From IMG/VR virus record IMGVR_UViG_3300029267_004155: a DNA stretch of 64,000 bases; one strand, written 5' to 3'. The stretch comes from a virus. Taxonomy: Duplodnaviria > Caudoviricetes. This document shows, one piece after another, positions 35,444-62,706 of this stretch. Below the pieces are notes generated by a model that was not told the DNA's origin, did not search any database, and was given only the letters and a program-made list of their open reading frames with translations. Positions within the stretch are counted from its first letter, which is position 1, and each line of letters begins with the position of its first letter. The position numbers and the translations under genes are program-made.

Positions 35444-36322
35444 TCTTGTGCGTCTGTGGCTGAGGCGTATAATGGTGGCGGAGGCGAGATGGAAAAGGCC
35501 ACTTTGACCGACATACTGGACATGTGGATGATGCGGACGCCGAGGCTTTTCAAGAGCGACGCGACCGCCTTGAGTTTCCTGGAGGCCTGCGCCGGGGTGG
35601 CGCGGGGAGAGGTTGGGCTCGCGCGACCGCCGGAGCTGCTGGCGGCCGGGGGCTTCTCCTCCTCCGGGGTTGACGCTGAGGAGATGAGGAAGGAGCTGGC
35701 CTTCGTGGCCGGAGAAGGAGCGGACGATGACAGACCAGGCGGACCAGGCGGAGTTGACGGCGAGGGAGTCGGAGGACAGGAGGAAGTGGCCGGAGAAGGA
35801 GGCGGAGGACACGAGAAGGTGGCCGCGGAAGGAGCAGGAGGCGGGAGGCCAGGCGGAGCCGAGGGCGAGGGGGTCGGAGGACAGGAGAAGGGGACCGGAG
35901 GACAGGAGAAGGGGGTCGGAGGACAGAGGAAGGGGGGCGAGGGACCAGGGGCCTCCGGGGAACCCTCACGTCCAGCACATGAGGGGCGTGATCCTGGAGA
36001 CGATCCGGGCCGTGCAGAAGGAGAAGCACGACTGCCTGGACTGCTTCCAGGCTTTCGCCCGTAGCGCCCGGGACGAGGAGGAGCTCAAGAACGTGATGAA
36101 CGGCATGATGCTGGTGGGGAGGCTGCACAGCAATGACGCCTGACGAACAGCTGATCTGCACCCGGTGCGGCGCCGAGATCGAGAGCATGATGGATGTGGG
36201 CTATCTGGGGCCGAGGGACCGGGGCGACAGGAGCTGCCACCCGTTCATGGAGTTCGAGACGGTCTGCCGGGAGTGCGAGGACAAAGGTGCCGAAGGCACG
36301 TCGGGAAAATCCGGCGACGGGG

Positions 36323-36352
36323 TTGGCAAGTCGGCGCCCGAGGGTGTATAAT
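36323..36352 (+). promoter_or_regulatory. Sigma70-like promoter of tRNA operon 1
   Basis: TTGGCA-18 nt-TATAAT with extended TG. Confidence 0.7.
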
Positions 36353-36420
36353 GGGATTTTGGACGACGGGTGAGGGTCCTGGCCAATTCCAGGGCTGGAC
36401 CCCACAAACCGAGAGAGACG

Positions 36421-36510
36421 ATGGACAAGCAGAGTCGCAACCTGATGTTGGCATGTTGTGGGCGGGGATATTCCTCGTTCCGCCTTACGCCTGCGTCCGG
36501 GCTGCGTTGA
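36421..36510 (+). CDS. Attenuator leader peptide 1 (MDKQSRNLMLACCGRGYSSFRLTPASGLR)
   Basis: Codons match operon-1 tRNAs; its 3' end contains the antiterminator strand. Confidence 0.8.
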   Translation: MDKQSRNLMLACCGRGYSSFRLTPASGLR

Positions 36511-36562
36511 CGCTCGTCGAAGCCCCTAGGCCCCCGGACGCGAAAGCCTCCGGGGGTTTTTC
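36493..36562 (+). terminator. Attenuator 1 antiterminator/terminator switch
   Basis: GCGTCCGGG (36493-36501) is complementary to terminator 5' arm CCCGGACGC (36533-36541); hairpin + U-tract. Confidence 0.85.
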
Positions 36563-36569
36563 TGTTTCT

Positions 36570-36660
36570 GGAGGGCGACCGGCTGCACGAGGAGCTCGAT
36601 TTGAAATCGGGTAGGCCCTGGAAACGGGGTCTCGGGGTTGGAGTCCCCGGCCCTCCTCCA
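36570..36660 (+). tRNA. tRNA-Ser(UGA), atypical D/T loops
   Basis: Cloverleaf, long variable arm, CCA. Confidence 0.8.
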
Positions 36661-36669
36661 GGATTGAAA

Positions 36670-36754
36670 GGCCCAGTGGCGGAATTGGCATACGCGCCCG
36701 ATTCAAAATCGGGTCCCTTCGGGGATGGGAGTTCGACTCTCCCCTGGGCTACCA
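36670..36754 (+). tRNA. tRNA-Leu(CAA)
   Basis: Cloverleaf, CCA. Confidence 0.92.
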
Positions 36755-36816
36755 GCAACAAATGGAACGAGATAGCGAGTCCGGGATCGAGAGAAGGAGA
36801 TGATCGACGACGAGAT

Positions 36817-36902
36817 GCGTCGGCTGAGCATTTGGCGAGCTCCCCGGTCTGTAAAATCGGCGCCTTCGGGCTTTGATGGTTCGACTCCATCTCGGCGCAC
36901 CA
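36817..36902 (+). tRNA. tRNA-Tyr(GUA)
   Basis: Cloverleaf, variable arm, CCA. Confidence 0.85.
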
Positions 36903-36915
36903 ACAACTGAACAGT

Positions 36916-37002
36916 GGTCCCGTGCCGGAATTGGCATACGGCCCCGGTTGAGGGCCGGGGGCCCGAGAGGGCGTGGGAGTTCGAGTCTCCCCGGGGTCAC
37001 CA
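36916..37002 (+). tRNA. tRNA-Leu(GAG)
   Basis: Cloverleaf, CCA. Confidence 0.9.
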
Positions 37003-37010
37003 GGAATCAT

Positions 37011-37101
37011 GGAGAGCATCCGGCCGGATGAGGAGCGCGTTTCGAAAGCGCGTAGGTCCCGGGAACGGGGCTTCGGAGTTCGAGTCTCCGGCTCTCCGCC
37101 A
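37011..37101 (+). tRNA. tRNA-Ser(CGA)
   Basis: Cloverleaf, long variable arm, GCCA. Confidence 0.85.
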
Positions 37102-37199
37102 AGATGTGGACCGGGGCTTCAAACCTCGGTGCAACCCATTAACGTCTTGTGGGGTATGCAAAGGCGTGACTTCGCCGGGTGGAGAGAACCCGGCAACAA

Positions 37200-37285
37200 G
37201 CCCGGGTGGTGGAATTGGCAGACACGCTGCGCTCAGACCGCAGTGCCGAAAGGCGGTGAGGGTTCGACTCCCTCCTCGGGCACCA
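37200..37285 (+). tRNA. tRNA-Leu(CAG)
   Basis: Cloverleaf, CCA. Confidence 0.92.
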
Positions 37286-37294
37286 GATTTAGAC

Positions 37295-37371
37295 GCAGTG
37301 GTAGCTCAGCCAGGTAGAGCTTCCGCCTTCCAAGCGGAAGGTCGCGCGTTCGATTCGCGTCCACTGCACCA
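37295..37371 (+). tRNA. tRNA-Gly(UCC)
   Basis: Cloverleaf, CCA. Confidence 0.9.
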
Positions 37372-37387
37372 TTGATAGGAGGAAGGA

Positions 37388-37564
37388 GTGAGGGCGCCAA
37401 ACTCGGTGATACGCGAGCGACTTGACCGTTGGTGCAAGCCGTGTCGTAAGATGGACGCCAAGGCGATGGTGTGCTTGGTGGAGAGGTGCAACGTCAGACG
37501 AAAGGCGTCGTTGGCAGAAGAGTCGTGCCCGATGGGTTTCTGGGGGAAGTACGAGGAGATTTGA
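37388..37564 (+). CDS. Small Cys-rich protein (DUF6171-like) inside the tRNA array
   Basis: ERLDRWCKPC...C....C...K....SCPMGFW; AGGAGG RBS; below the ORF-track size cutoff. Confidence 0.55.
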   Translation: MRAPNSVIRERLDRWCKPCRKMDAKAMVCLVERCNVRRKASLAEESCPMGFWGKYEEI

Positions 37565-37569
37565 ATAGT

Positions 37570-37660
37570 GGAGAGCGTCCGGATGGACGAGGAGTCGGTT
37601 TGCTAAACCGGTAGGCCCTGGAAACGGGGTTTCGGGGTTCGATTCCCCGGCTCTCCGCCA
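37570..37660 (+). tRNA. tRNA-Ser(GCU)
   Basis: Cloverleaf, long variable arm, GCCA. Confidence 0.87.
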
Positions 37661-37738
37661 AAGATTGTGTCCCGACCGGTGCTCGGGCTTGGCAGCCCGA
37701 CGGGTCCAAACGCCCGGCCAGAACTGGAAGGGACTTTC

Positions 37739-37815
37739 GGTGAGGTAGCTCAGTCCGGTAGAGCACTCGGTTGAAGCCCGAGGCGTCGTTGGTTCGATTC
37801 CGACTCTCACCACCA
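37739..37815 (+). tRNA. tRNA-Phe(GAA)
   Basis: Cloverleaf, CCA. Confidence 0.9.
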
Positions 37816-37820
37816 ATTTG

Positions 37821-37904
37821 GCCCGAGTGGCGGAATGGCAGACGCGGCCGGTTTAAGTTCGGCTGTCGAAAGGCGTGCAGGTTCGATCCCTGTCTCGGGC
37901 ACCA
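37821..37904 (+). tRNA. tRNA-Leu(UAA)
   Basis: Cloverleaf, CCA. Confidence 0.9.
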
Positions 37905-37942
37905 AGGTGTAGCAGTGTAGCAGTGTAGCAAAGGAGATTTTT

Positions 37943-38018
37943 GGCGGGGTGGCTGAGAGGTTTAGGCGCGCGGTTGCAACCCGCGTTCATGAGGGTTCGA
38001 GTCCCTCCCCCGTCTCCA
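37943..38018 (+). tRNA. tRNA-Cys(GCA)
   Basis: Cloverleaf, U73, CCA. Confidence 0.9.
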
Positions 38019-38025
38019 TTTTCGA

Positions 38026-38196
38026 TGAGGCCGTCCACCTAATGGCAAGGGCCGGAGCGGAGCGCCGCATAGCCCGTCGAGGCGCAAGCGCGACGGGTGA
38101 CGCCTGCGAGTCCAAAGGGCTGTGACATGGCCAGCCACGCGGGCTGCGGAATGGGCAGGACGCACCGGGATGCGGGTTCGAGTCCCGTCGGCTTCA
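38026..38196 (+). ncRNA. tRNA-like RNA with ~105-nt structured insert replacing the anticodon loop
   Basis: Acceptor TGAGGCCG/CGGCTTCA, D-like loop TAATGGCAAG, T arm GCGGGTTCGAGTCCCGT. Confidence 0.6.
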
Positions 38197-38204
38197 GACT
38201 TTGA

Positions 38205-38295
38205 GGAGAGCATCCGGCTGCATGAGGAGCGCCGTTGGAAACGGCGTCGGTCCGGGAAACCGGGCTTCGGGGTTGGAGTCCCCGGCTCTCCGCCA
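38205..38295 (+). tRNA. tRNA-Ser(GGA), atypical D/T loops
   Basis: Cloverleaf, GCCA. Confidence 0.82.
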
Positions 38296-38327
38296 GTATG
38301 TTAAGGGCAACCCAAAGGAGGTTGCTG

Positions 38328-38993
38328 ATGAAGATCGAGGGCTGTCGGGTGGCCGCGGCGATGGTCGTCTATCACACCTACGGCCTGATGAGGAAGGCGG
38401 TGGCGTCGGTGAGGAGGTTCTATCCGGACATCGACTTCTTCGTGGTGGACAACACCGAGGGGGTCGCTCCGAGGAACGTCAGGAAATGGGCGAAGAGGAA
38501 CCGGGTGAGGCTTATCCGGGTGGGGTCCAACATCGGCCATGGGCCGGGGATGAACGTGGCGCTGTGGGCGACGGAGGCCGACGTGCTGCTGATGCTGGAC
38601 AGCGATACGGAGATGTACGAGCCGAACTTGCTGGAGGACGCCCTGGCGAAGGTCGGGGGCCGGAAGACCAGGTGGTACGGGATAGGGCCGGTCGCGCCGG
38701 TGAAAAGGCCGGTGGGAGGCGAGAAGGTTTCGTACCTTCATTCGTCGACGTGCCTCTTCCATGTCGGGTACTATCGGCGGTTCGAGCCGTTCACGGACCA
38801 CGGGCTTGCGCTGGTGGCGCCGATGTACGAGCTGAGGGTCAAGAGGATGGAGTCGATGCTGGTGGACTTCCCGGTCCAGGACTACGTGCATCACCTCTGG
38901 AGAGGAACCAGGGACTTTTGCAGGGGCCACCAGCTGGACAGGTCTTACGAAAGCCGGAAGTCGGCCTCCTGGTGGGAGCCTGGGAAGTTTTGA
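38328..38993 (+). CDS. Glycosyltransferase family 2
   Basis: VVDN, NIGHGPGMN, LMLDSD. Confidence 0.85.
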   Translation: MKIEGCRVAAAMVVYHTYGLMRKAVASVRRFYPDIDFFVVDNTEGVAPRNVRKWAKRNRVRLIRVGSNIGHGPGMNVALWATEADVLLMLDSDTEMYEPNLLEDALAKVGGRKTRWYGIGPVAPVKRPVGGEKVSYLHSSTCLFHVGYYRRFEPFTDHGLALVAPMYELRVKRMESMLVDFPVQDYVHHLWRGTRDFCRGHQLDRSYESRKSASWWEPGKF

Positions 38994-38999
38994 TAATGA

Positions 39000-39077
39000 G
39001 CGCCCGTAGCTCAGTCTGAATAGAGCGCCCCGCTACGGACGGGGAAGTCGCAGGTTTGAATCCTGCCGGGCGTGCCA
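39000..39077 (+). tRNA. tRNA-Arg(ACG)
   Basis: Cloverleaf; A19/U56 variant. Confidence 0.88.
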
Positions 39078-39084
39078 ACTTTGA

Positions 39085-39160
39085 GGACCTGTAGTTCAGT
39101 TGGAAGAACATCGGTCTCCGAAGCCGAAGGTCGCGGGTTCGAGTCCCGCCGGGTCCTCCA
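39085..39160 (+). tRNA. tRNA-Arg(CCG)
   Basis: Cloverleaf, CCA. Confidence 0.9.
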
Positions 39161-39167
39161 GAATTAT

Positions 39168-39244
39168 CCGTCTGTAGCTCAGTTGGTTAGAGCGGTCGTC
39201 TCATACGCGACAGGTTGTAGGTTCGATCCCTACCAGACGGACCA
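39168..39244 (+). tRNA. tRNA-Met(CAU), elongator-type
   Basis: Cloverleaf, paired 1-72, CCA. Confidence 0.85.
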
Positions 39245-39347: not shown

Positions 39348-39971
39348 ATGACGGGAGTGCTTGACAGGCGGGTCCTGGTGCTTGACGGCTCGTGGAGGCC
39401 GGTGGACGTGACGAACGTGGTCGGGGCCCTGTGCAAGGTGTGCGCGGGGAAGGCCGACGTCGTCGACAATGACTACTCCCTCTACGGCTTCGAGGAGTGG
39501 GTCGAGAGCTGGTCCGACGCGGCCAGGGCCGCGGAGATGGCCGAGTCGGGGCGCCCCCTCGTGCGTTCCAGGAGCTTCGCCTTCCCGGCGCCGGAGGTCA
39601 TCCGGCTCGTCCGGAAGGTCCGCTTCTGGCGTCGTCGGGCCAAGCTCTGCCGGAAGGCGATCTTCGCCCGCGACCGGAACGTCTGTCAGTACTGCGGCAA
39701 GAAGCTGCCGGCCTCCAAGCTCAACATCGACCACGTGGTCCCCAAGTCCAGGGGTGGAGGCACGACCTGGGAGAACCTGGTTCTCTCGTGCGTGAGGTGC
39801 AACCACAAGAAGGACAGCCGGACGCCCAGGGAGGCGGGCCTGACGCTCCTGAGGGAGCCGAGGGAGCCGCACTGGGCCGTCGTCAACAGGCGTGGCATCC
39901 TGAGGGACCCTCCCAGGTCGTGGGAGGACTTCCTCGGCGCCATGTACTGGGACGTCGAGCTGGAGGGCTGA
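39348..39971 (+). CDS. HNH endonuclease
   Basis: IFARDRNVCQYCG...NIDHVVPKSRGGGTTWENLVLSCVRCNHKK. Confidence 0.93.
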   Translation: MTGVLDRRVLVLDGSWRPVDVTNVVGALCKVCAGKADVVDNDYSLYGFEEWVESWSDAARAAEMAESGRPLVRSRSFAFPAPEVIRLVRKVRFWRRRAKLCRKAIFARDRNVCQYCGKKLPASKLNIDHVVPKSRGGGTTWENLVLSCVRCNHKKDSRTPREAGLTLLREPREPHWAVVNRRGILRDPPRSWEDFLGAMYWDVELEG

Positions 39972-40048
39972 CGGGCCGGTTCTCGGAAAAATCTCCGAGG
40001 GGGCTGGTAAGACTGGCGTTGACGGCGTATGATAATAGGCAAGGAGCA

Positions 40049-40129
40049 ATGTACTCAATGAACCCGATGGCCAGACACGAAGCGATCGAGCAGCCCGCGA
40101 ACGCGGGTGCCGGGGGTGCTGTGTTCTGA
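40049..40129 (+). CDS. Attenuator leader peptide 2 (MYSMNPMARHEAIEQPANAGAGGAVF)
   Basis: AAGGAG RBS; TATGATAAT upstream; codons match operon-2 tRNAs. Confidence 0.82.
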   Translation: MYSMNPMARHEAIEQPANAGAGGAVF

Positions 40130-40186
40130 CCCTGATAGGTCCAAGGACCCCCGGCACCCCGAAAAGGGCGTCGGGGGTTTTTCTTT
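40105..40186 (+). terminator. Attenuator 2 antiterminator/terminator switch
   Basis: GGGTGCCGGGGGT (40105-40117) is a perfect 13-bp complement of ACCCCCGGCACCC (40147-40159); hairpin + U-tract. Confidence 0.9.
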
Positions 40187-40222: not shown

Positions 40223-40300
40223 GGGCCGGTAGCTCAGTTGGCTAAGAGCACCTGACTTGCAATCAGGATGTCCAGGGTTCGATCCCCTGTCGGTCCACCA
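40223..40300 (+). tRNA. tRNA-Ala(UGC)
   Basis: Cloverleaf, G3:U70, CCA. Confidence 0.92.
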
Positions 40301-40311
40301 ACAATTCAGAT

Positions 40312-40389
40312 GCGCCTCGGAGCTCGGTCAGGAAGAGCGCCCGGTCGTGGCCCGGGAGGCCGCGGGTTCGAGTCCCGTCGGGGCGCCCA
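40312..40389 (+). tRNA. tRNA-His(GUG)
   Basis: 8-bp acceptor with G-1:C73; C33. Confidence 0.85.
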
Positions 40390-40398
40390 GGATCATGC

Positions 40399-40476
40399 GG
40401 TGGCGTAGCTTAGTTGGCCGAAAGCGCTGTCCTGTCACGGCAGAGAACGAGGGTTCAAATCCCTTCGTCACCGCCA
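40399..40476 (+). tRNA. tRNA-Asp(GUC)
   Basis: Cloverleaf, GCCA. Confidence 0.9.
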
Positions 40477-40483
40477 ATATCAC

Positions 40484-40559
40484 GGCCACGTAGCTCAGCG
40501 GCAGGAGCGTCCGGTCCACACCCGGATGGTCGAAGGTTCGAGTCCTTCCGTGGTCACCA
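40484..40559 (+). tRNA. tRNA-Val(CAC)
   Basis: Cloverleaf; C33. Confidence 0.87.
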
Positions 40560-40565
40560 GTTCGA

Positions 40566-40639
40566 TGCCCGGTGGTGTAATGGCAGCACAGCTGGTTCTG
40601 GCCCAGTCGGTCAGGGTTCGAGTCCTTGCCGGGCAGCCA
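40566..40639 (+). tRNA. tRNA-Gln(CUG)
   Basis: Cloverleaf, U1-A72. Confidence 0.9.
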
Positions 40640-40647
40640 GATATCGA

Positions 40648-40724
40648 GCGCCCGTAGCTCAGGGGATACGAGCAGCGCACTTCTAATGCGCGGGTCGAAG
40701 GTTCGAATCCTTCCGGGCGTGCCA
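40648..40724 (+). tRNA. tRNA-Arg(UCU)
   Basis: Cloverleaf, GCCA. Confidence 0.9.
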
Positions 40725-40726
40725 AT

Positions 40727-40803
40727 GGGCGGTTAGTTCAGATGGCTAGAACGTCAGCTCGACATGCTGAAGGTTGCGAGTTCGAGTCTCGCACCGCCCA
40801 CCA
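40727..40803 (+). tRNA. tRNA-Val(GAC)
   Basis: Cloverleaf; C33. Confidence 0.88.
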
Positions 40804-40834
40804 TCAGTCAAGGAGAGAGGCGAGAGCAACATGT

Positions 40835-40911
40835 CGGCCCATAGCTCAGTTGGTAAGAGCGAACGGCTGATAACCGTTAGGTCGGAGGTTCGATTCCTCC
40901 TGGGCCGACCA
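40835..40911 (+). tRNA. tRNA-Ile(GAU)
   Basis: Cloverleaf, CCA. Confidence 0.92.
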
Positions 40912-40925
40912 ACAATTGAATATGT

Positions 40926-41000
40926 GTCCCCATCGTCTAGCGGCCAGGATGCGAGGCCCTCAACCTCGTGACGCCGGTTCGAGTCCGGCTGGGGATGCCA
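40926..41000 (+). tRNA. tRNA-Glu(CUC)
   Basis: Cloverleaf, GCCA. Confidence 0.9.
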
Positions 41001-41112
41001 GGATTGAGGGCTGCAATATGGCCGGAAAGCAAGTCGCGGGCTTTGCCGAGTTCCAAGACGCGCAGAAGCGGGTAGACGGCAGTCCTGGGGGAGCGGCAAA
41101 CTCCCCCGAACT

Positions 41113-41189
41113 CGGGATGTGGCTCAGTCTGGTAGAGCGTCCGGCTGGGGGCCGGAAGGTCGCAGGTTCGATTCCTGCCATCCCGACCA
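41113..41189 (+). tRNA. tRNA-Pro(GGG)
   Basis: Cloverleaf, C1-G72. Confidence 0.92.
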
Positions 41190-41199
41190 TAGACTTGAG

Positions 41200-41278
41200 A
41201 GCGGGGTGAATGTCGATTTGGTAAGACGCCAGGCTCATAACCTGGAGCATGTGGGTTCAACTCCCACCCCCGCCACCA
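41200..41278 (+). tRNA. Initiator-like tRNA-fMet(CAU)
   Basis: A1.C72 mismatch, TTCAA T loop, irregular D arm. Confidence 0.75.
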
Positions 41279-41343
41279 ATATCGGGACGTGACGAGCGGT
41301 TTGACTCCGTCGCCTGAAGCGTGAATGGGCAAGCGTCCCACTT

Positions 41344-41418
41344 GGCCCCATCGTCTAGTGGCAAGGACGTCGGGTTTTCATCCCGGAGACGGGGGTTCGA
41401 TTCCCCCTGGGGCTACCA
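41344..41418 (+). tRNA. tRNA-Glu(UUC)
   Basis: Cloverleaf, CCA. Confidence 0.9.
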
Positions 41419-41426
41419 GTTTTAGA

Positions 41427-41498
41427 TGGCCCGTAGCTCAGCGGTAGAGCATGCGACTCATAATTGCGGGGTCCTCGGTTCAATCCCGAGCGGGCCAA
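41427..41498 (+). tRNA. tRNA with CAU anticodon (probable Ile2), no encoded CCA
   Basis: Cloverleaf; ends ACTA. Confidence 0.75.
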
Positions 41499-41667
41499 CT
41501 AGTTTTTTGTTGCGATGATGGCCGGTACCGGCGAGGGAAAGTCATCAGATGGGCGCCAACCGGGTATTGCTCGGAAGAAGGCACTGTCGGAAATCGGTGG
41601 TGGGGTGACGTCCGAAGCCGCCGTTCGCCGACGCCCGTTCCGTCTGGCGGCGGCCGCGACATCTTAT

Positions 41668-41744
41668 CGGGATGTGGCTCAGTCTGGTAGAGCGCCTCGT
41701 TCGGGGCGAGGAAGCCGGAGGTTCAAATCCTCTCATCCCGACCA
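41668..41744 (+). tRNA. tRNA-Pro(CGG)
   Basis: Cloverleaf, CCA. Confidence 0.92.
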
Positions 41745-41749
41745 GTTTT

Positions 41750-41826
41750 CGGGCGGTGGCGCAGTTTGGAAGCGCGCGGCGTTTGGGGCGCTGAGGTCGC
41801 CGGTTCGAGCCCGGCCCGCCCGACCA
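41750..41826 (+). tRNA. tRNA-Pro(UGG)
   Basis: Cloverleaf, CCA. Confidence 0.9.
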
Positions 41827-42006
41827 GTCTCGGGATGTGTCCAGACGTGGAGAAACTGGACCGCAAAAACAAAAAACTCTCGCAGTAACGAGACCCGAAA
41901 GGGATAGGAAGTGAGGAAACTGCGTCAACAACACTCGGCCTCCGTAGCTCTGGGCGCTTACACCTACGGACCTTTTCGCAGGCAGGAAGATGGAGGAAGA
42001 CGATTG

Positions 42007-42894
42007 ATGGACCTGATAGTGGAAACCGACATCGGGCACGATCCCGACGACTACTTCACGCTGTGCCACCTGCACGCCGCGGGTGTCAGGATCAGGGCGA
42101 TCCTCGTCTCTCCCGGACACCGGTACCAGGTCGCCATCGCGAGGGCCTTCTGCGCGGAGGTCGGCCTGGATGTCCCTGTCGGGATCGCGAAGGAGACGAG
42201 CGTCGTCAAGACCGGAGGGACGTCGTTCCACATGGCGCTCCTGAGGAAGATGGGACATCCGACCGAGGCGGACCCCGACGGCTTCGGCCACGAGCTTCTG
42301 GGCGGGGTTCTCGAGGACCATCCGGACAGCGACGTCTTCATCTGCGGGCCGGTGAAGAACGTGGGCCGCTACATGATCGAGCATCCGGAGAGGGAGTTCG
42401 GGCGGGTCACGATGCAGGGTGGCTTTCTGGGATACGACCTTCATGGCCATGACGTCGAGAGGCTTCCCAAGTTCAAGGGCAAGGTGGCCGTGCCTACCTT
42501 CAACTTGAACGGGTCGAAGGACGAGGGCTTGTTCCTGGCGTCGCGGGCGAAGGTCGGGGACCTGAGGTTCGTCGGCAAGAACGTCTGTCACACGATCCTG
42601 TACGACAGGGCGAGGCACGAGTGGATGAGGCGCAGGAAGCCTTCCTGCCGGGCGATGGAGCTGTTCATGGAAGGCATGGACCTCTATCTCTACGGGAAGA
42701 GGCACCGGGAGAAGAAGTTCCACGACCCGACCGCTGCCGTGTGCCATCTGCATCCCGAGATCGGGACCTGGGTTGGCGGAAGGTTGTACCGGGAGGGAGG
42801 CTGGTGGGGGACGAAGGTCGAGGAGGGGACGAACACCAGGGTCTTGGCCGATGTTGACCGGGAGGGGCTTTGGGACTTTATCAGAGGGTGTTAG
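42007..42894 (+). CDS. Inosine/uridine-preferring nucleoside hydrolase family protein
   Basis: ETDIGHDPDD, GPVKN, MQGG, TFN, FHDP motifs. Confidence 0.85.
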   Translation: MDLIVETDIGHDPDDYFTLCHLHAAGVRIRAILVSPGHRYQVAIARAFCAEVGLDVPVGIAKETSVVKTGGTSFHMALLRKMGHPTEADPDGFGHELLGGVLEDHPDSDVFICGPVKNVGRYMIEHPEREFGRVTMQGGFLGYDLHGHDVERLPKFKGKVAVPTFNLNGSKDEGLFLASRAKVGDLRFVGKNVCHTILYDRARHEWMRRRKPSCRAMELFMEGMDLYLYGKRHREKKFHDPTAAVCHLHPEIGTWVGGRLYREGGWWGTKVEEGTNTRVLADVDREGLWDFIRGC

Positions 42895-42913
42895 GGCCCG
42901 TCCGGCCATGGAT

Positions 42914-42987
42914 TGCCCCGTGGTGTAATGGCAGCACAAGTGTCTTTGGAGCACTCGGTTCTGGTTCGAGTCCAGGCGGGGCAGCCA
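42914..42987 (+). tRNA. tRNA-Gln(UUG)
   Basis: Cloverleaf, GCCA. Confidence 0.9.
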
Positions 42988-43049
42988 TCTCCTGGGCGCG
43001 GGCAGGCCGGGGCCGGCCTCGATCCCCGTCGGAAAAACCGAGAGGTCGC

Positions 43050-43078
43050 TTGGCAAATTCGGGCGAGCGGCGTATAAT
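43050..43078 (+). promoter_or_regulatory. Sigma70-like promoter of tRNA operon 3
   Basis: TTGGCA-17 nt-TATAAT. Confidence 0.75.
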
Positions 43079-43102
43079 AAGGCAACGAAAGGCAACTACG
43101 TC

Positions 43103-43186
43103 ATGCTGACGGGAACCACAACGAAAGACAATACCTGGGGCGGCAAGCCCGCCCACGGGGGTCTTTCGCTTGGAGTTCAAGCGTAG
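43103..43186 (+). CDS. Attenuator leader peptide 3 (MLTGTTTKDNTWGGKPAHGGLSLGVQA)
   Basis: GAAAGG RBS; codons match operon-3 tRNAs. Confidence 0.8.
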   Translation: MLTGTTTKDNTWGGKPAHGGLSLGVQA

Positions 43187-43243
43187 ACGGTGGCGAGCGC
43201 GCTGTGAGACCCCCGGCCCGAAAGGGCGCGGGGGTTTTTCTTT
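43156..43243 (+). terminator. Attenuator 3 antiterminator/terminator switch
   Basis: CGGGGGTCT (43156-43164) is complementary to AGACCCCCG (43207-43215); GAAA-loop hairpin + U-tract. Confidence 0.85.
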
Positions 43244-43319
43244 GCGGCAGTAGCTCAGTCGGAAGAGCACCTGCTTGCCAAGCAGGAGGCCACGGGTTCG
43301 AGCCCCGTCTGTCGCACCA
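43244..43319 (+). tRNA. tRNA-Gly(GCC)
   Basis: Cloverleaf, CCA. Confidence 0.9.
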
Positions 43320-43330
43320 GGTTTCATGAT

Positions 43331-43407
43331 AGGTCCGTAGCTCAATCGGCTAGAGCACCGGTCTCCAAAACCGGCGGTTCTCGGTTCGACCCCGAGCGGG
43401 CCTGCCA
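43331..43407 (+). tRNA. tRNA-Trp(CCA)
   Basis: Cloverleaf, GCCA. Confidence 0.92.
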
Positions 43408-43411
43408 AGAA

Positions 43412-43487
43412 CGGCTCGTAGCTCAGTTGGTAGAGCATCCGCCTTTTAAGCGGAACGCCGAGGGTTCGAGTCCCTCCGAGCCGACCA
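43412..43487 (+). tRNA. tRNA-Lys(UUU)
   Basis: Cloverleaf, CCA. Confidence 0.92.
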
Positions 43488-43568
43488 GAAATTCGGAGCG
43501 AGTGGAAAACCTTGCTCGTTCGGCAATGTAGGGTGGAGACGAGGTTCAACAGAAGGAGATGTGATCGA

Positions 43569-43642
43569 GGTTCCGTAGCTTAGAGGTAGAGCGGGCGGCT
43601 CGGACCGCGTGGCCGCAGGTTCGAGCCCTGCCGGGACCTCCA
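43569..43642 (+). tRNA. Aberrant tRNA with 6-nt anticodon loop (CTCGGA; possibly Arg(UCG)-derived)
   Basis: Intact acceptor, D and T arms and CCA; short anticodon loop. Confidence 0.6.
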
Positions 43643-43663
43643 ACTCGACAGGAGAGTCTATTC

Positions 43664-43740
43664 GCACCCGTAGCTCAGTTGGCTAGAGCGGCTGACTCTT
43701 AATCAGCAGGTTCTCGGTTCGAACCCGAGCGGGTGTGCCA
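43664..43740 (+). tRNA. tRNA-Lys(CUU)
   Basis: Cloverleaf, GCCA. Confidence 0.92.
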
Positions 43741-43751
43741 ACAATTCAGAT

Positions 43752-43847
43752 GCCGATGTGGTGTAATGGTAGCACACCGGGTAAACCGGAGGTTTTCCTC
43801 GATCAGCGCGCGTAGTCGAGGCGGTTCAAGTCCAGACATCGGCTCCA
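43752..43847 (+). ncRNA. Thr-like tRNA derivative with shortened anticodon arm and extra hairpin
   Basis: GCCGATG/CATCGGC-TCCA acceptor; CCGG-GTAAA-CCGG; inserted CCTCGA...TCGAGG stem. Confidence 0.6.
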
Positions 43848-43965
43848 ACAACTTAGGCGACACCTGCCTGTCCGAAGAAGGTCCGGCGACGAGCGGGGAC
43901 GAACCCGTGGACGACCAGGCTGGAGGAGAAGTGGTGTGACTCGGGTGAGAGCAGGCCCGCATTAA

Positions 43966-44042
43966 GCCCGGATAGCTCAGTGGCTAAGAGCAGCCGATTC
44001 GTAATCGGCAGGTCGAGGGTTCGAGTCCCTCTCTGGGCTCCA
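43966..44042 (+). tRNA. tRNA-Thr(CGU)
   Basis: Cloverleaf, CCA. Confidence 0.92.
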
Positions 44043-44045
44043 GAC

Positions 44046-44119
44046 TCCCCCATGGTGTAATGGTAGCACGTAGGACTGTTAATCCTTTGGTCCTGGTTCG
44101 AGTCCAGGTGGGGGAACCA
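44046..44119 (+). tRNA. tRNA-Asn(GUU)
   Basis: Cloverleaf, CCA. Confidence 0.9.
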
Positions 44120-44169: not shown

Positions 44170-45612
44170 ATGAAGAGGGAAGAGACGATTCGGAAGCTGT
44201 ACGAGTGCGTTCAGACGCGTCCGCGTCCGGAGGATGTTGCCGAGGTCGTGCTGGAGGCATTGCTTCCGCGGCTGTCGCTGGCCCAGAGGAACGTCTTGAA
44301 GCAGGCGACCAGGATCTCGACGAGGAGCCACCTCCTGGGCTACTCGTCCATGGCCGCGGACTTCCATCGCCCGACGGGCATGGAGAAGCCGGTCAAGGTG
44401 GCGTCCGAGCTCTTCTCCGTTCCGATGCTGTCGGTGGAGGAGTGCCTCGACCCGGAGAGGGTGGAGGTCTTCGTCCAGGGCGTGTCGTCGGCCATCGGCA
44501 AGAGCTACGGGCAGTCCGACTTCCTGAAGCACCGGATGAACCGGGAGCAGCGGGCGCAGGCGGGCCTCGACATGGGGCACCGCGCCTACAACAAGCGCTT
44601 CAGGCTCCTGGGCCGGATGGAGTCCAAGCTCCTGAGGATGGTCCGCGAGCGGAAGAAGTACGTCCTGACCCGGATCGGCAAGAGCGGCTTCGCCGTGGAG
44701 ATCGACTTCGACGACTTCTCCGCCGACCTGGGCACGGCCTGCTTCGTGGCGTACATGAGCGCGAGGATGAGCCTTCGGAGCACCTTCACGAACGACTCCC
44801 AGGTTCGGGCCTTCGACGTGGTGGCCAAGATGCTGTACGACCGCCTGACCAAGTCCAACACGGCCAGGTGGGACGTCGTGGCCGCCGTCTATCCGGTGGA
44901 CAGGGTCCTGAGGCTCCTGACGGACTACCAGAAGGGCGCCATGCTCGCGAGGGCGTGGGGTCTCCTGGAGGACGCGTGCGACCTTCTCACGGAGGTCTGG
45001 GAGGGTTCCGGCGGCGGCATCGACCTGGAGAGGATGGTGGTGCGGCGCGGGTGCGACTCGTCGACGTGGAACCAGTCGGCCGGCGGGTGGAACAAGGCCC
45101 GGGACCACTGGGTGTCGATGCTTCACGCCATGGGCATGGGCTCCATGCTTGAGGCCCTGTGCCCGGGCAAGGTCATGAGGCTGATGGCGGCGGACGTGGT
45201 CCGTTGGCACCTGGCCTCGGGCGGCGACGTCCATCCGGGGACCAAGGTGTGGGCTGAGCTTCCGTACCCGTGGGACGTCGTCGCGGGCAAGGAGCGGTGC
45301 ACGAAGGAGATGGTGGTGGCCGCGTGCGAGAGGCACGGCGTCGAGCCGGCGTCCTGGGTCGGGCCGAGGAGGCGTGCCCGGGCCGTGGAGTTCACGCCGA
45401 CCCCCGAGCTGGTGCACGGCGTCGCCGTGTCGAGCCCGGGACTGGCTCTCGCCCTGCGGAGGGCCGGGGTCTTCTCGGCCAAGGCCCTCAGGGCCGAGCA
45501 TCTCCCGGCCGGCGGCTTCCATGTCGACAGGGACGGCGACGGCTTCGCGCTCGGGGCGACCGACGCGAATTCTCACGGGTCGGGCCGGAAGGTCCGGGCC
45601 GCGGGCGTATAG
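44170..45612 (+). CDS. 480-aa helical protein of unknown function at the end of the tRNA array
   Basis: AGGAGG RBS; motif-rich C-terminus (DSSTWN, CPGKVMRLMAADV, PTPELVHGV). Confidence 0.8.
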   Translation: MKREETIRKLYECVQTRPRPEDVAEVVLEALLPRLSLAQRNVLKQATRISTRSHLLGYSSMAADFHRPTGMEKPVKVASELFSVPMLSVEECLDPERVEVFVQGVSSAIGKSYGQSDFLKHRMNREQRAQAGLDMGHRAYNKRFRLLGRMESKLLRMVRERKKYVLTRIGKSGFAVEIDFDDFSADLGTACFVAYMSARMSLRSTFTNDSQVRAFDVVAKMLYDRLTKSNTARWDVVAAVYPVDRVLRLLTDYQKGAMLARAWGLLEDACDLLTEVWEGSGGGIDLERMVVRRGCDSSTWNQSAGGWNKARDHWVSMLHAMGMGSMLEALCPGKVMRLMAADVVRWHLASGGDVHPGTKVWAELPYPWDVVAGKERCTKEMVVAACERHGVEPASWVGPRRRARAVEFTPTPELVHGVAVSSPGLALALRRAGVFSAKALRAEHLPAGGFHVDRDGDGFALGATDANSHGSGRKVRAAGV

Positions 45613-45625
45613 TAGGAGTGGATGC

Positions 45626-45787
45626 AGGTGTGTAGCTCAGTGGTAGAGCGTCCCGGCTCTTTTTCCGGGAGGACGCAGGTTCGAGCCCTGCCTCACCTGC
45701 CAATCTTGTCTCGACGTAGCTCAGTGGTAGAGCGTCCCGGCTCTTTTTCCGGGAGGACGCAGGTTCGAGCCCTGTCGTTCGAGGCCA
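45626..45787 (+). ncRNA. Two tandem near-identical tRNA-like RNAs with an 8-nt CUCUUUUU loop
   Basis: 59-nt duplication (45632-45690 and 45716-45774); both end in GCCA. Confidence 0.7.
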
Positions 45788-60129: not shown

Positions 60130-62706
60130 ATGGGGAAAGACAAAGATCAAGAGCAGGACCTCTCGTACGAGGGCTGCTACGGGCCGAAGCTGAGCTACTC
60201 CGAGCTCGACGACTTCCTGGCCGAGTCGTTCAGCCTGAACTACGAGATCAAGAACGATCGGGACCGGTTCTCCACCTGCGTGTGGGGTCATTCCGGTGTC
60301 GGAAAGTGCATTGCTGGGGAGTCTCTCGTCGTGACTGACGACGGGATGGTGGAGATAGCCGAGTGCTGTGACGGCCTGGGGGACGACTCCACAAGGGGGG
60401 TTGTCGACCTTAGGGTTCACACTCCGAACCGAAGCGACCCGATGCAGCAGGTAGCTTTTGTGTATCATGCCGGTTTGAAGGATGCCATCGGGATCAGGAC
60501 GAGCAATGGGAGGGAGATCGTTGGCAGCCTGGAGCATCCGGTGAAGGTGCTGACGGAATCGGGGTTCAAATGGAAGAACCTGCCCGAACTGGAGATCGGC
60601 GATTTTGTCGTTGTCGATTTTGTCAGGGTCGATGCGCCCGACATGGGGCTTCCTTCCCTTGGCGACCTCGGGAGATATTGCATCCGTGATTTTGTGGTGC
60701 CATCGAGGATGACGCCCGACTTGGCCTTCGTGCTCGGGGCTCTCGTTGGGGAGGGGGCACAGGGCTCTCGTTATGTGGTCAAGTTCTCGCAGCATGAGTC
60801 TCGTCCGCTCGGGGACGCCTACTGTCTGAGATTTGAAAAAGTGTTTGGGCTCCGGCCTGTTCGATCTTCCCACAAGGGGGATGGCAATTTCGACTACTCT
60901 GTGAACAGGACGGCGATCAGGAGGTGGCTGGCCGAGATAGGTCTTGACTATGCGGGAAGCGACGATGTGCGCGTTCCCTATTCCGTCATGCGGTCCTCGA
61001 AACGTAGCCAGTTGGGGTTTCTGAAGGCGCTCGTGGAGGCCGGGGGCTCCAACGAGTTGCATGGAATCTCGATAGGGTCGAACTCGAAGAGGATGCTGGA
61101 GCAGGTGCAGTTCATGCTTCTGCGTTTCGGCGTGATGGCCTCTCTCAGAAGGAAGACGAAGAAGGCGTGGAGGCTGAACGTTACCGGAGAGGACGCGAGG
61201 GCCTTCAATGAGGTTGTCGGCTTCTCCAGGGCCGCGGGTGAATGGCTTGATCGTTCATCCAATCCGAACAAGGATGGTGTCCCCTCCTGTTGGGCGTGGG
61301 GGTTCCTTCGGGCCATGAAGGATTCGCACCTGGCGAATGGTGGCCATGTCGGGAAGAAGGCCGTCCACTCCTGTCCGCTGAACAGCATCTATGGCGAGGG
61401 CCTCAAGAAGAGGCGAAAGGTGTGGAGCAGGGAGAAGGTTGAGAGGATTGCTGCCGTCCTGGATGCCGCCGACGAGTCGTACAGGACGCTTCTGGACTAT
61501 GTGATGGCTTATAGGTACGAGACAGTGGAGGAGACCTGGGATGCTGGTCGCATTCCCCTCTTCGATCTGTGCGTGCCGAATGGTCATGAGTTCGTGGCTA
61601 ATGGGATCGTGGTTCACAATTCTGGTAAGATCGACCAGTTCCGGAAGGTGCCGGTCAAGTGGGAGGGCGACGACTACGAGGGCTACGACGTCAGGCATGT
61701 CCCCATCGCGCAGTTCGAGGAGATGGGCGACCTGCACGGGCTCCCCGACAAGCACGTCCTGATTCGCAGGAATCACGGCAGGAACGATGAGCTGTGGGTG
61801 CCGATGGAAGTGGCCAAGGGCTACGTCAACGACGGGTGGGACGTCGATCACACGGCGGGCGTCAGGACAATGTACGCGCCTCCGGACTGGGTGCCTCACC
61901 GGCCGGGGCCGTCGATCCTCCACCTGGAGGACTGGAACCGGGCGAGCGGCCGCATCGTCAAGGGGATCATGCAGCTGATGCAGACCTACGGGATGATGAG
62001 CTGGAGGCTGCCGCCTGGCTGCAACATAGTGATGTCGGCCAACCCGGACGAGCAGGAGTACCTCGTGACGACCATCGACAAGGCGATCCTGACCAGGTTC
62101 CGCAGCGCGACCCTGAGGCACGACGCCAAGGAGTGGGCGGTCTGGGCCGACGCCCAGGGGCTCGACCCACGGGGGATCAACTACGTCCTGTCCTACCCCG
62201 AGATGATGGTCGGGGGCGAGAGGACGATGCCGCGGACGCTGTCGGACTTCTTCCGGTACTCAAAGAGGGTGCCGAGCCTGAAGGGCAAGGAGTCGGTCGC
62301 GCGTCTCAGGAGGATGGCCCAGGCGCTCCTGGACGACGTCACGGTCCATTCCATCCTGACCTTCTTCCAGAGGGACGTGGAGATGGCCGTCGAGCCGGAG
62401 CGGATACTGCTCGGGGACGAGTCGGCCTTCAAGCACGTCAAGGACCTCATGACCAGGAGGGAGAAGAGGATCGACGTGGTCGGGGTCATCTCCAGCCGGC
62501 TCTTCGCCAGGCTGGCCAACCCCGAGTGCGAGCAGACGGCGTCGGCAGTTGCCAACGTCCAGCGCTTCCTGACGCTGCCGTGCCTGGAGGAGGACATGAG
62601 GCATGCCCTCTGCCTCCGCATCAACAGGGTCCGTGACGAGGGGCGCATGGTGCAGTGGATACTCGGGAACGACGAGCTCAAGGACCTCATCATGAAGGTG
62701 GTGTGA
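60130..62706 (+). CDS. AAA+ ATPase interrupted by an intein
   Basis: WGHSGVGK|S Walker A, YAPPDW, LEDWNRA, SANP, D.AILTRF, MPRT. Confidence 0.88.
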   Translation: MGKDKDQEQDLSYEGCYGPKLSYSELDDFLAESFSLNYEIKNDRDRFSTCVWGHSGVGKCIAGESLVVTDDGMVEIAECCDGLGDDSTRGVVDLRVHTPNRSDPMQQVAFVYHAGLKDAIGIRTSNGREIVGSLEHPVKVLTESGFKWKNLPELEIGDFVVVDFVRVDAPDMGLPSLGDLGRYCIRDFVVPSRMTPDLAFVLGALVGEGAQGSRYVVKFSQHESRPLGDAYCLRFEKVFGLRPVRSSHKGDGNFDYSVNRTAIRRWLAEIGLDYAGSDDVRVPYSVMRSSKRSQLGFLKALVEAGGSNELHGISIGSNSKRMLEQVQFMLLRFGVMASLRRKTKKAWRLNVTGEDARAFNEVVGFSRAAGEWLDRSSNPNKDGVPSCWAWGFLRAMKDSHLANGGHVGKKAVHSCPLNSIYGEGLKKRRKVWSREKVERIAAVLDAADESYRTLLDYVMAYRYETVEETWDAGRIPLFDLCVPNGHEFVANGIVVHNSGKIDQFRKVPVKWEGDDYEGYDVRHVPIAQFEEMGDLHGLPDKHVLIRRNHGRNDELWVPMEVAKGYVNDGWDVDHTAGVRTMYAPPDWVPHRPGPSILHLEDWNRASGRIVKGIMQLMQTYGMMSWRLPPGCNIVMSANPDEQEYLVTTIDKAILTRFRSATLRHDAKEWAVWADAQGLDPRGINYVLSYPEMMVGGERTMPRTLSDFFRYSKRVPSLKGKESVARLRRMAQALLDDVTVHSILTFFQRDVEMAVEPERILLGDESAFKHVKDLMTRREKRIDVVGVISSRLFARLANPECEQTASAVANVQRFLTLPCLEEDMRHALCLRINRVRDEGRMVQWILGNDELKDLIMKVV
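60307..61620 (+). mobile_element. Intein with LAGLIDADG homing-endonuclease domain
   Basis: Starts CIAGESLV; SLEHPV block B; LGALVGEG and FLKALVEAGG blocks; ends FVANGIVVHN|S; visibly lower GC. Confidence 0.93.

Follow-up and report, generated by a model that had tools for sequence, protein, structure and literature searches.

Leader-peptide attenuators control amino-acid operons of enterobacteria, with ilvGMEDA, thrL, trpL, hisL, leuL and pheL as examples. The purpose of tRNA genes in phages is an old question, and the main ideas are codon bias, host tRNA degradation and anticodon-nuclease defence. Cleavage of host tRNA by defence nucleases is an obvious source of tRNA shortage during infection. 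In bacteria, the tRNA L-array of Anabaena PCC 7120 is expressed under translational stress (PMC8421152, PMC10272220).

We analyzed a phage-derived stretch of 64,000 nucleotides (the window) with a focus on attenuator 2, a locus in front of a block of tRNA genes. Like attenuators of the ilvGMEDA/thrL type, it comprises a Shine-Dalgarno sequence, a short ORF, overlapping 1:2, 2:3 and 3:4 helices and a U-tract; its control codons lie where a stall would free segment 2, and a stall is predicted by modeling to result in read-through. Judged from sequence and folding models, attenuator 2 is probably a ribosome-controlled transcription attenuator that gates phage tRNA genes. A first-pass annotation had proposed the attenuator reading, which is now supported by the own-block matching of three leaders, an ortholog (L072), ribosome-position folding and a family-level test in other phages.

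The tRNA array and the layout of attenuator 2

The window has a GC content of 66% and is packed with small plus-strand genes, including those of a NAD-dependent ligase, an AAA ATPase and a vWA protein. It is part of a metagenomic contig of 298,395 bp, which we read as a jumbo phage. About 40 tRNA genes are located in the window between 36.6 and 45.8 kb. A terminator motif occurs in exactly three copies in the 64 kb (0 in 100 shuffles). Upstream of each copy are a promoter-like site and a short ORF, and a tRNA block follows immediately downstream (Table 1).

Table 1. Coordinates of attenuator 2, its sister units and the tRNA blocks in the window.
Feature	Position	Strand	Remarks
Putative sigma70-like promoter of block 2	40004–40033	+	weak −35 CTGGTA 40004–40009, 18-nt spacer, −10 TATGAT 40028–40033
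Shine-Dalgarno sequence	40041–40046	+	AAGGAG; conserved in L072
Leader ORF, 23 codons	40058–40129	+	in-frame alternative ATGs 40049, 40067
Sensing run, 12 codons	40064–40099	+	every amino acid carried by block-2 tRNAs
Protector (1:2-type) hairpin, 6 bp	40093–40108	+	overlaps 5′ end of antiterminator strand
Antiterminator strand (segment 2)	40105–40117	+	within leader ORF; exact reverse complement of 40147–40159
Intrinsic terminator	40145–40186	+	3:4 hairpin 40145–40180, U-tract to 40186
tRNA block 2	40223–42987	+	16 tRNA genes: Ala, His, Asp, Val (two), Gln (two), Arg(UCU), Ile, Glu (two), Pro (three), two CAU
Sister attenuator 1	36323–36561	+	promoter-like site 36323–36352, ORF 36421–36510, terminator 36531–36561; before block 1
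tRNA block 1	36570–39244	+	Ser, Leu, Tyr, Gly, Phe, Cys, Arg, Met
Sister attenuator 3	43050–43239	+	promoter-like site 43050–43078, ORF 43103–43186, terminator 43210–43239; before block 3
tRNA block 3	43244–44119	+	Gly, Trp, Lys (two), Thr, Asn

Three protein genes lie inside the tRNA blocks and would come under attenuator control: a GT2 glycosyltransferase (38328–38993), an HNH endonuclease (39348–39971) and a nucleoside-hydrolase-like gene (42010–42894), which splits block 2 before Gln(UUG). At its default threshold ARAGORN misses the genes for Ser UGA (36570–36656), Ser GGA (38201–38294) and an initiator-like CAU tRNA (41201–41278); a tRNA-like sequence with a long insertion lies at 38024–38195. 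The tRNA-like gene at 43569–43642 has a 6-nt anticodon loop and is Arg UCG-like, and an odd gene at 43752–43847 combines a Thr-like acceptor with a long insertion. At 45626–45787, a tandem pair of tRNA-like genes, identical in part, has an anticodon loop of 8 nt (possibly frameshift-suppressor or pseudo-Lys tRNAs); a promoter-like site but no attenuator is found ahead of the pair. Inside the array, a protein of 480 amino acids (44170–45612) has no Pfam match. Its 1088 homologs in phages and bacteria, the named ones including Myxococcota, Armatimonadota and Chloroflexota, were of no help in locating related tRNA arrays. Further downstream, the gene at 60130–62706 contains an intein with a LAGLIDADG domain inside.

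The promoter-like site of block 2 scored under the threshold of the promoter scan; its −10 box is conserved in L072, where the site reads TTGAAA-17-TATGAT, and the sister units have TTGGCA..TATAAT. From these boxes it would be expected to act as a promoter. TTGACG at 40019 was rejected as −35 box, being only 3 nt from the −10 box. An element CGG(G/A)AAAA is common to all three promoters (36301–36309, 39984–39991 and 43031–43038), about 15–20 nt 5′ of the −35 box, and is possibly a UP element or an activator site.

Between the promoter-like site and the first tRNA gene, the sequence features include a short ORF with a ribosome-binding site. The codon numbers of the first-pass annotation fit an ORF at 40049–40129, and the whole element was given there as 40020–40186. 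Frame, stop and the codons listed as 6–17 are indeed read from the sequence, whereas the start is likely ATG 40058, because this codon is 11 nt from AAGGAG (2 nt for 40049) and is aligned with the ATG of L072. The element itself begins about 16 nt earlier than annotated, at the −35-like box. The perfect 13-bp antiterminator of that annotation is exact; none of 20,000 leader shuffles reached a complement of this length (maximum 12), and among the 101-nt tiles of the window only attenuator 2 itself does. The strand was also correctly described as ending 10 nt before the stop, which begins at 40127. The notion that a ribosome at the stop covers this strand holds for its 3′ part (the G-run) only and depends on the assumed footprint. 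The protector hairpin was absent from the annotation and is seen here.

The 5′ arm of the terminator (40147–40159) is common to the 3:4 hairpin and the antiterminator. The U-tract is separated from the first block-2 tRNA by 36 nt, in which no promoter-like site was called; on the other side, the HNH gene ends just 5′ of attenuator 2. Two other assemblies of this phage (L398 and L400) are identical across the attenuator. All hits of an Rfam scan of attenuator 2 were far under the gathering scores.

The ortholog L072 (Ga0164310_10111120) has Ala, His and Asp tRNAs downstream and a different gene upstream. It shares with attenuator 2 the Shine-Dalgarno sequence, the stop position, the terminator and nine identical core residues of the leader peptide, RHEAIEQPA. 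All six pairs of the protector hairpin are retained: one C-G is replaced by A-U and one G-U by G-C, and every substitution is synonymous; in these two distinct sequences the compensatory pair is suggestive of a conserved structure. The antiterminator of L072 is imperfect but stable (−27.5 kcal/mol), so perfect pairing is not a conserved property. Its leader has Asp and Val codons in place of the Asn and Ala codons of attenuator 2. As a single observation, the first tRNA of L072 reads as Ala(AGC), and the GCG of leader 2 is replaced by GCC in the L072 leader. A degenerate search for the leader 2 peptide yielded two viral contigs, L157 and L158, which were discarded as chance hits, tRNAs and terminator being absent. 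A BLAST search of attenuator 2 against cultured phages gave chance-level matches only.

Correspondence between leaders and tRNA blocks

Leader 1 contains an exact cognate codon for 13 of the 15 block-1 tRNAs, and leader 3 for all six canonical tRNAs of block 3. Shuffling codons among leaders or tRNAs among blocks under three matching rules resulted in p-values of 1e-5 to 4e-5 for the three leaders against their own blocks, with 43 matches where 25 are expected (wobble rule). The leaders match their own block and not the other two. In leader 3 there are also several Thr codons (ACC, ACA) for which block 3 has no canonical cognate tRNA. A counterpart of leader 1 was found in L031, a 180-kb IMG/VR contig, with 10 of 11 block anticodons represented. 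It has a Trp tRNA in the Ser/Leu block and a Trp codon in the leader; leader 1 and block 1 of the window have neither, and Trp is found there in block 3 and leader 3.

For leader 2, all tRNA genes named by the first-pass annotation lie downstream. Its match of 12 consecutive codons is sustained by amino acid; by codon 10 of the 12 are clean, with GCC and ATG doubtful. The longest run amounts to 12 by amino acid and 9 by codon with standard wobble, the latter because GCC is read by the sole Ala tRNA (UGC) only via four-way wobble. For the internal ATG, a CAU tRNA of block 1 is the probable reader: of the CAU genes in block 2 we take the one at 41201 for an initiator and the one at 41427 for an AUA-reading Ile2, and an elongator-like CAU gene lies in block 1 at 39168. 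L072 carries Ile codons, ATA included, at this site. Eleven of the 12 codons of the sensing run are distinct, and two are rare in the phage (AGA, 4 of 376 Arg codons; GAA, 16 of 321 Glu codons; 11 phage genes). Five block-2 tRNAs, those for Asp, Val (both genes), Pro(UGG) and Gln(UUG), lack an exact codon in the run. The tRNAs of block 2 account for 10 amino acids and 49–57% of expected codons, and since this is half the code, leader 2 alone is only modestly significant (p = 0.0015–0.009 for the run; 17/25 overall, p = 0.05–0.19).

For the wider family, IMG/VR was searched with a pattern of a GC hairpin, a U-tract and a nearby T-loop, and leaders were chosen by a rule blind to tRNA identity. 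Among the matches listed, 71 of 212 terminator-tRNA junctions (33%) have a leader with Shine-Dalgarno sequence and ATG, compared with 8% of shifted controls. In 51 non-redundant leaders taken from contigs other than this one, almost all of them viral, the in-frame match was 0.415 versus 0.291 permuted (z = 8.2, p at the permutation floor of 5e-5) among the matches listed, with tRNA blocks truncated by locus ends and with relatedness handled by a 50% peptide filter only, so that the sequences are phylogenetically non-independent. Frames +1 and +2 of these leaders, again among the matches listed, showed no excess (z below 0). Synonymous choice follows the block anticodons: at codons where the block reads only part of the synonymous family, 179 agreements were counted versus 142 expected from base composition (n = 262, z = 4.7, among the matches listed). 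The leader peptides have no common sequence across the family, only the match to their own tRNA block. For example, a Ser run precedes four Ser tRNAs (L270), Leu runs precede five Leu tRNAs (L268), a Pro/Gln/His leader precedes Pro, His and Gln tRNAs (L219) and an Arg/Leu/Lys/Trp leader precedes tRNAs for those four (L383).

A 45-codon leader with nearly all 20 amino acids (L107:477–614) lies before a terminator and a degenerate-looking tRNA array and is possibly a whole-code version of the sensor. Several of the attenuator-bearing phages also have tRNA genes with amber or ochre anticodons (CUA, UUA; L031:1926–2000, L240, L206 and L313), which suggests recoding or suppression. No terminator-leader unit was found on inspection of the second block of G001 (L154).

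Read by eye, the design is present in cultured phages, with two leaders each in the Caulobacter phages CcrMagneto, phiCbK and CcrRogue, and also in Erythrobacter phage XM05 and Microbacterium phage Zooman. The same inspection identified it in bacteria: in an assembly of Hymenobacter aranciens (L446) and in a Bryobacterales MAG (L415) with three blocks, every one behind a matching leader. It is not universal, as our rule found no terminator-leader unit in the tRNA regions examined of the cultured phages Pseudomonas phage Cassandra, Stenotrophomonas phage CM1 and Streptomyces phage JustBecause. Among such leaders are phiCbK gp083 and its homologs, which 26 Caulobacter phage records list as hypothetical proteins beside predicted terminators. 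With a relaxed ARAGORN threshold, phiCbK (JX100813, L531:3683–4756) contains unannotated tRNA-like genes for Thr(GGU), His(GUG), Ala(UGC) and Ser(GCU), and unannotated Arg tRNA genes as well; these match leader codons, including those of gp083. The tRNAs are mentioned in the genome paper of phiCbK; a regulatory RNA is not (PMC3556154).

Predicted switching and its proposed trigger

The predicted helices of attenuator 2 have energies of −12.2 (1:2), −39.1 (2:3) and −26.4 kcal/mol (3:4); for the 6-bp protector hairpin at 40093–40108 the value is −10.3 kcal/mol. Folding with a masked ribosome gave a terminator probability of about 0 for A-site codons 3–14 counted from 40058, i.e. the matched run, with codon 10 as an exception (0.68), and of 1.0 from AAC, the first non-matching codon, onward. 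The same drop was obtained with a bounded footprint; the value at the stop varies with the backward reach of this footprint. In the folding model, 19 of 22 matched leaders of the family switch between early codons and stop, and capture of the terminator 5′ arm is 0.75 versus 0.45 for shuffled sequences and above the shuffles in 21 of the 22 (all among the matches listed). In 36 other units, matched residues occupy 0.54 of antitermination-permitting positions versus 0.26 elsewhere, with the position bias of matched codons present in 22 of 30 leaders (p = 9e-4), both among the matches listed. From the ribosome-position folding of attenuator 2 and of the family units, a stall within the matched run should turn the block on.

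With the ribosome absent, antitermination of attenuator 2 is predicted at 0.7–0.9 (2:3 −39.1 versus 1:2 plus 3:4 about −38.6 kcal/mol). As regards the protector hairpin as an aid to the terminator in the untranslated state, the calculated energies of the two states differ by less than 1 kcal/mol, and antitermination is favoured in the ensemble. Given this predicted read-through of its untranslated form, attenuator 2 would react to a general failure of translation as well. For L072 and both sister units, the terminator is the equilibrium fold at most or all positions. Their switch must therefore be kinetic, as in classical attenuators, and in the model L072 and attenuator 3 show a weak contrast at the stop.

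The proposed cycle would start with RNA polymerase initiating near 40040 and a ribosome following it along the leader ORF. With an ample supply of tRNAs for the sensing codons, this ribosome would move onto the antiterminator strand, no antiterminator could form, and folding of the terminator would keep block 2 off. A slow sensing codon would stall the ribosome upstream, the 13-bp duplex would capture the terminator 5′ arm, and the 16 tRNA genes would be transcribed. The new block-2 tRNAs would then relieve the stall and close the feedback loop. We infer the transcription, translation, coupling, switch direction and physiological trigger of attenuator 2 from these features, and coupling is an assumption.

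With regard to the trigger, one reading, at slightly less than even odds, has block-specific leaders take a census of tRNA isoacceptors in phages and in bacteria with spare arrays; a depleted tRNA would cause a stall that turns on its replacement block. Cleavage by host anticodon nucleases, or infection load, could bring about such a shortage, and attenuator 2 may in this way be linked to anticodon-nuclease defence. A signal given by shortage of individual tRNA species, more than by amino-acid starvation, is suggested by the use of one codon per anticodon, rare codons included, by the isoacceptor tracking in the family, and by the consideration that newly made tRNA would remedy a lack of tRNA but not a lack of amino acids. 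The same switch could be a multivalent amino-acid attenuator triggered by uncharged tRNA in amino-acid starvation. We regard this as possible but doubtful: a stalled ribosome cannot distinguish the causes, as established for the trp, his and ilv attenuators, and leader 2 matches better by amino acid than by codon, but its codons are nearly all different and follow isoacceptors, whereas amino-acid sensors repeat one residue, and extra tRNA would presumably leave the starvation as it was. The predicted read-through of untranslated leader 2 and the induction of the Anabaena L-array by translational stress (PMC8421152) would fit a general switch in which any early failure of initiation or elongation in the leader, be it from host shut-off, antibiotics or uncoupling, opens the block and the codon match only tunes the response. 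This is unlikely, because it leaves unexplained why three blocks have three block-specific leaders and why leader content shifts with block content across genomes.

Two further explanations dispense with sensing by the leader codons. An active peptide, either an arrest peptide or a trans-acting factor, might account for the identity of RHEAIEQPA in L072, and trans-acting leader peptides such as peTrpL exist (PMC7298713); we consider it very improbable, since the peptides of the family share only the match to their own block. Hardly credible, finally, is an ordinary terminator of the HNH gene combined with a chance ORF and codon match, the tRNAs being transcribed from another promoter or by means of a phage antitermination factor. 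The position of the HNH gene, the poor −35 box and the modest significance of leader 2 alone would agree with it. Against it stand the perfect complement missing from all shuffles, the conservation of peptide, Shine-Dalgarno sequence and stop in L072 despite a different upstream gene, the short distance from U-tract to first tRNA with no promoter-like site called in it, and a family match that is found in frame only (z = 8.2, among the matches listed).

Relation to known regulatory systems

With a sensor for its own slow codons, a block would supply its phage tRNAs when they are needed, and what is being monitored could be read from the leader. If the tRNA-census reading is true, phage tRNA arrays are an inducible counter-defence with its own sensor, and block organization follows from sensing. 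The leaders also point to overlooked tRNA genes, as in phiCbK. In the literature covered, which includes few subscription papers, we found no published case of leader-peptide control of tRNA genes; attenuator 2 would extend attenuation to this class of genes, for which no precedent was found there.

As far as sequence and predicted folds can tell, attenuator 2 has the features of ribosome-mediated attenuators of the trp/ilv type, including control codons that match the product of the operon, this product being tRNA and not an amino acid. It lies outside the amino-acid leader families, its downstream genes being tRNAs and the Rfam Trp, His, Leu, Thr and Phe leader models giving no match. Unlike attenuators of the ilvGMEDA/thrL type it is phage-borne, controls tRNA genes instead of enzymes, has segment 2 within the ORF, and addresses about ten amino acids with one codon each, chosen at the isoacceptor level; its product would remove the signal itself. 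In contrast to trp super-attenuation, termination is not predicted for the untranslated state.

The attenuator of pheM/pheST and the T-box riboswitches likewise tune genes of translation supply to tRNA charging by conditional termination. Their targets, however, are synthetase or biosynthetic genes, and T-boxes bind tRNA directly, without translation. No T-box was matched in attenuator 2 by Rfam at gathering score or at E-values up to 10, and no passage on T-boxes before tRNA genes was found in PMC2494555. The mycobacterial leaderless polycysteine uORF attenuators (bioRxiv 10.1101/834739) are also short ORFs rich in the sensed residue, and several relatives of attenuator 2 appear leaderless like them; they differ in sensing one amino acid and in their protein-coding targets. 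PMC8421152, on the Anabaena PCC 7120 array, uses neither the word "attenuator" nor the word "terminator". This TrcR-repressed trn operon resembles the phage locus as a long, mobile tRNA array with a link to an HNH endonuclease, but it is controlled by a protein repressor (PMC8421152, PMC10272220), whereas each phage block has one predicted RNA switch in cis.
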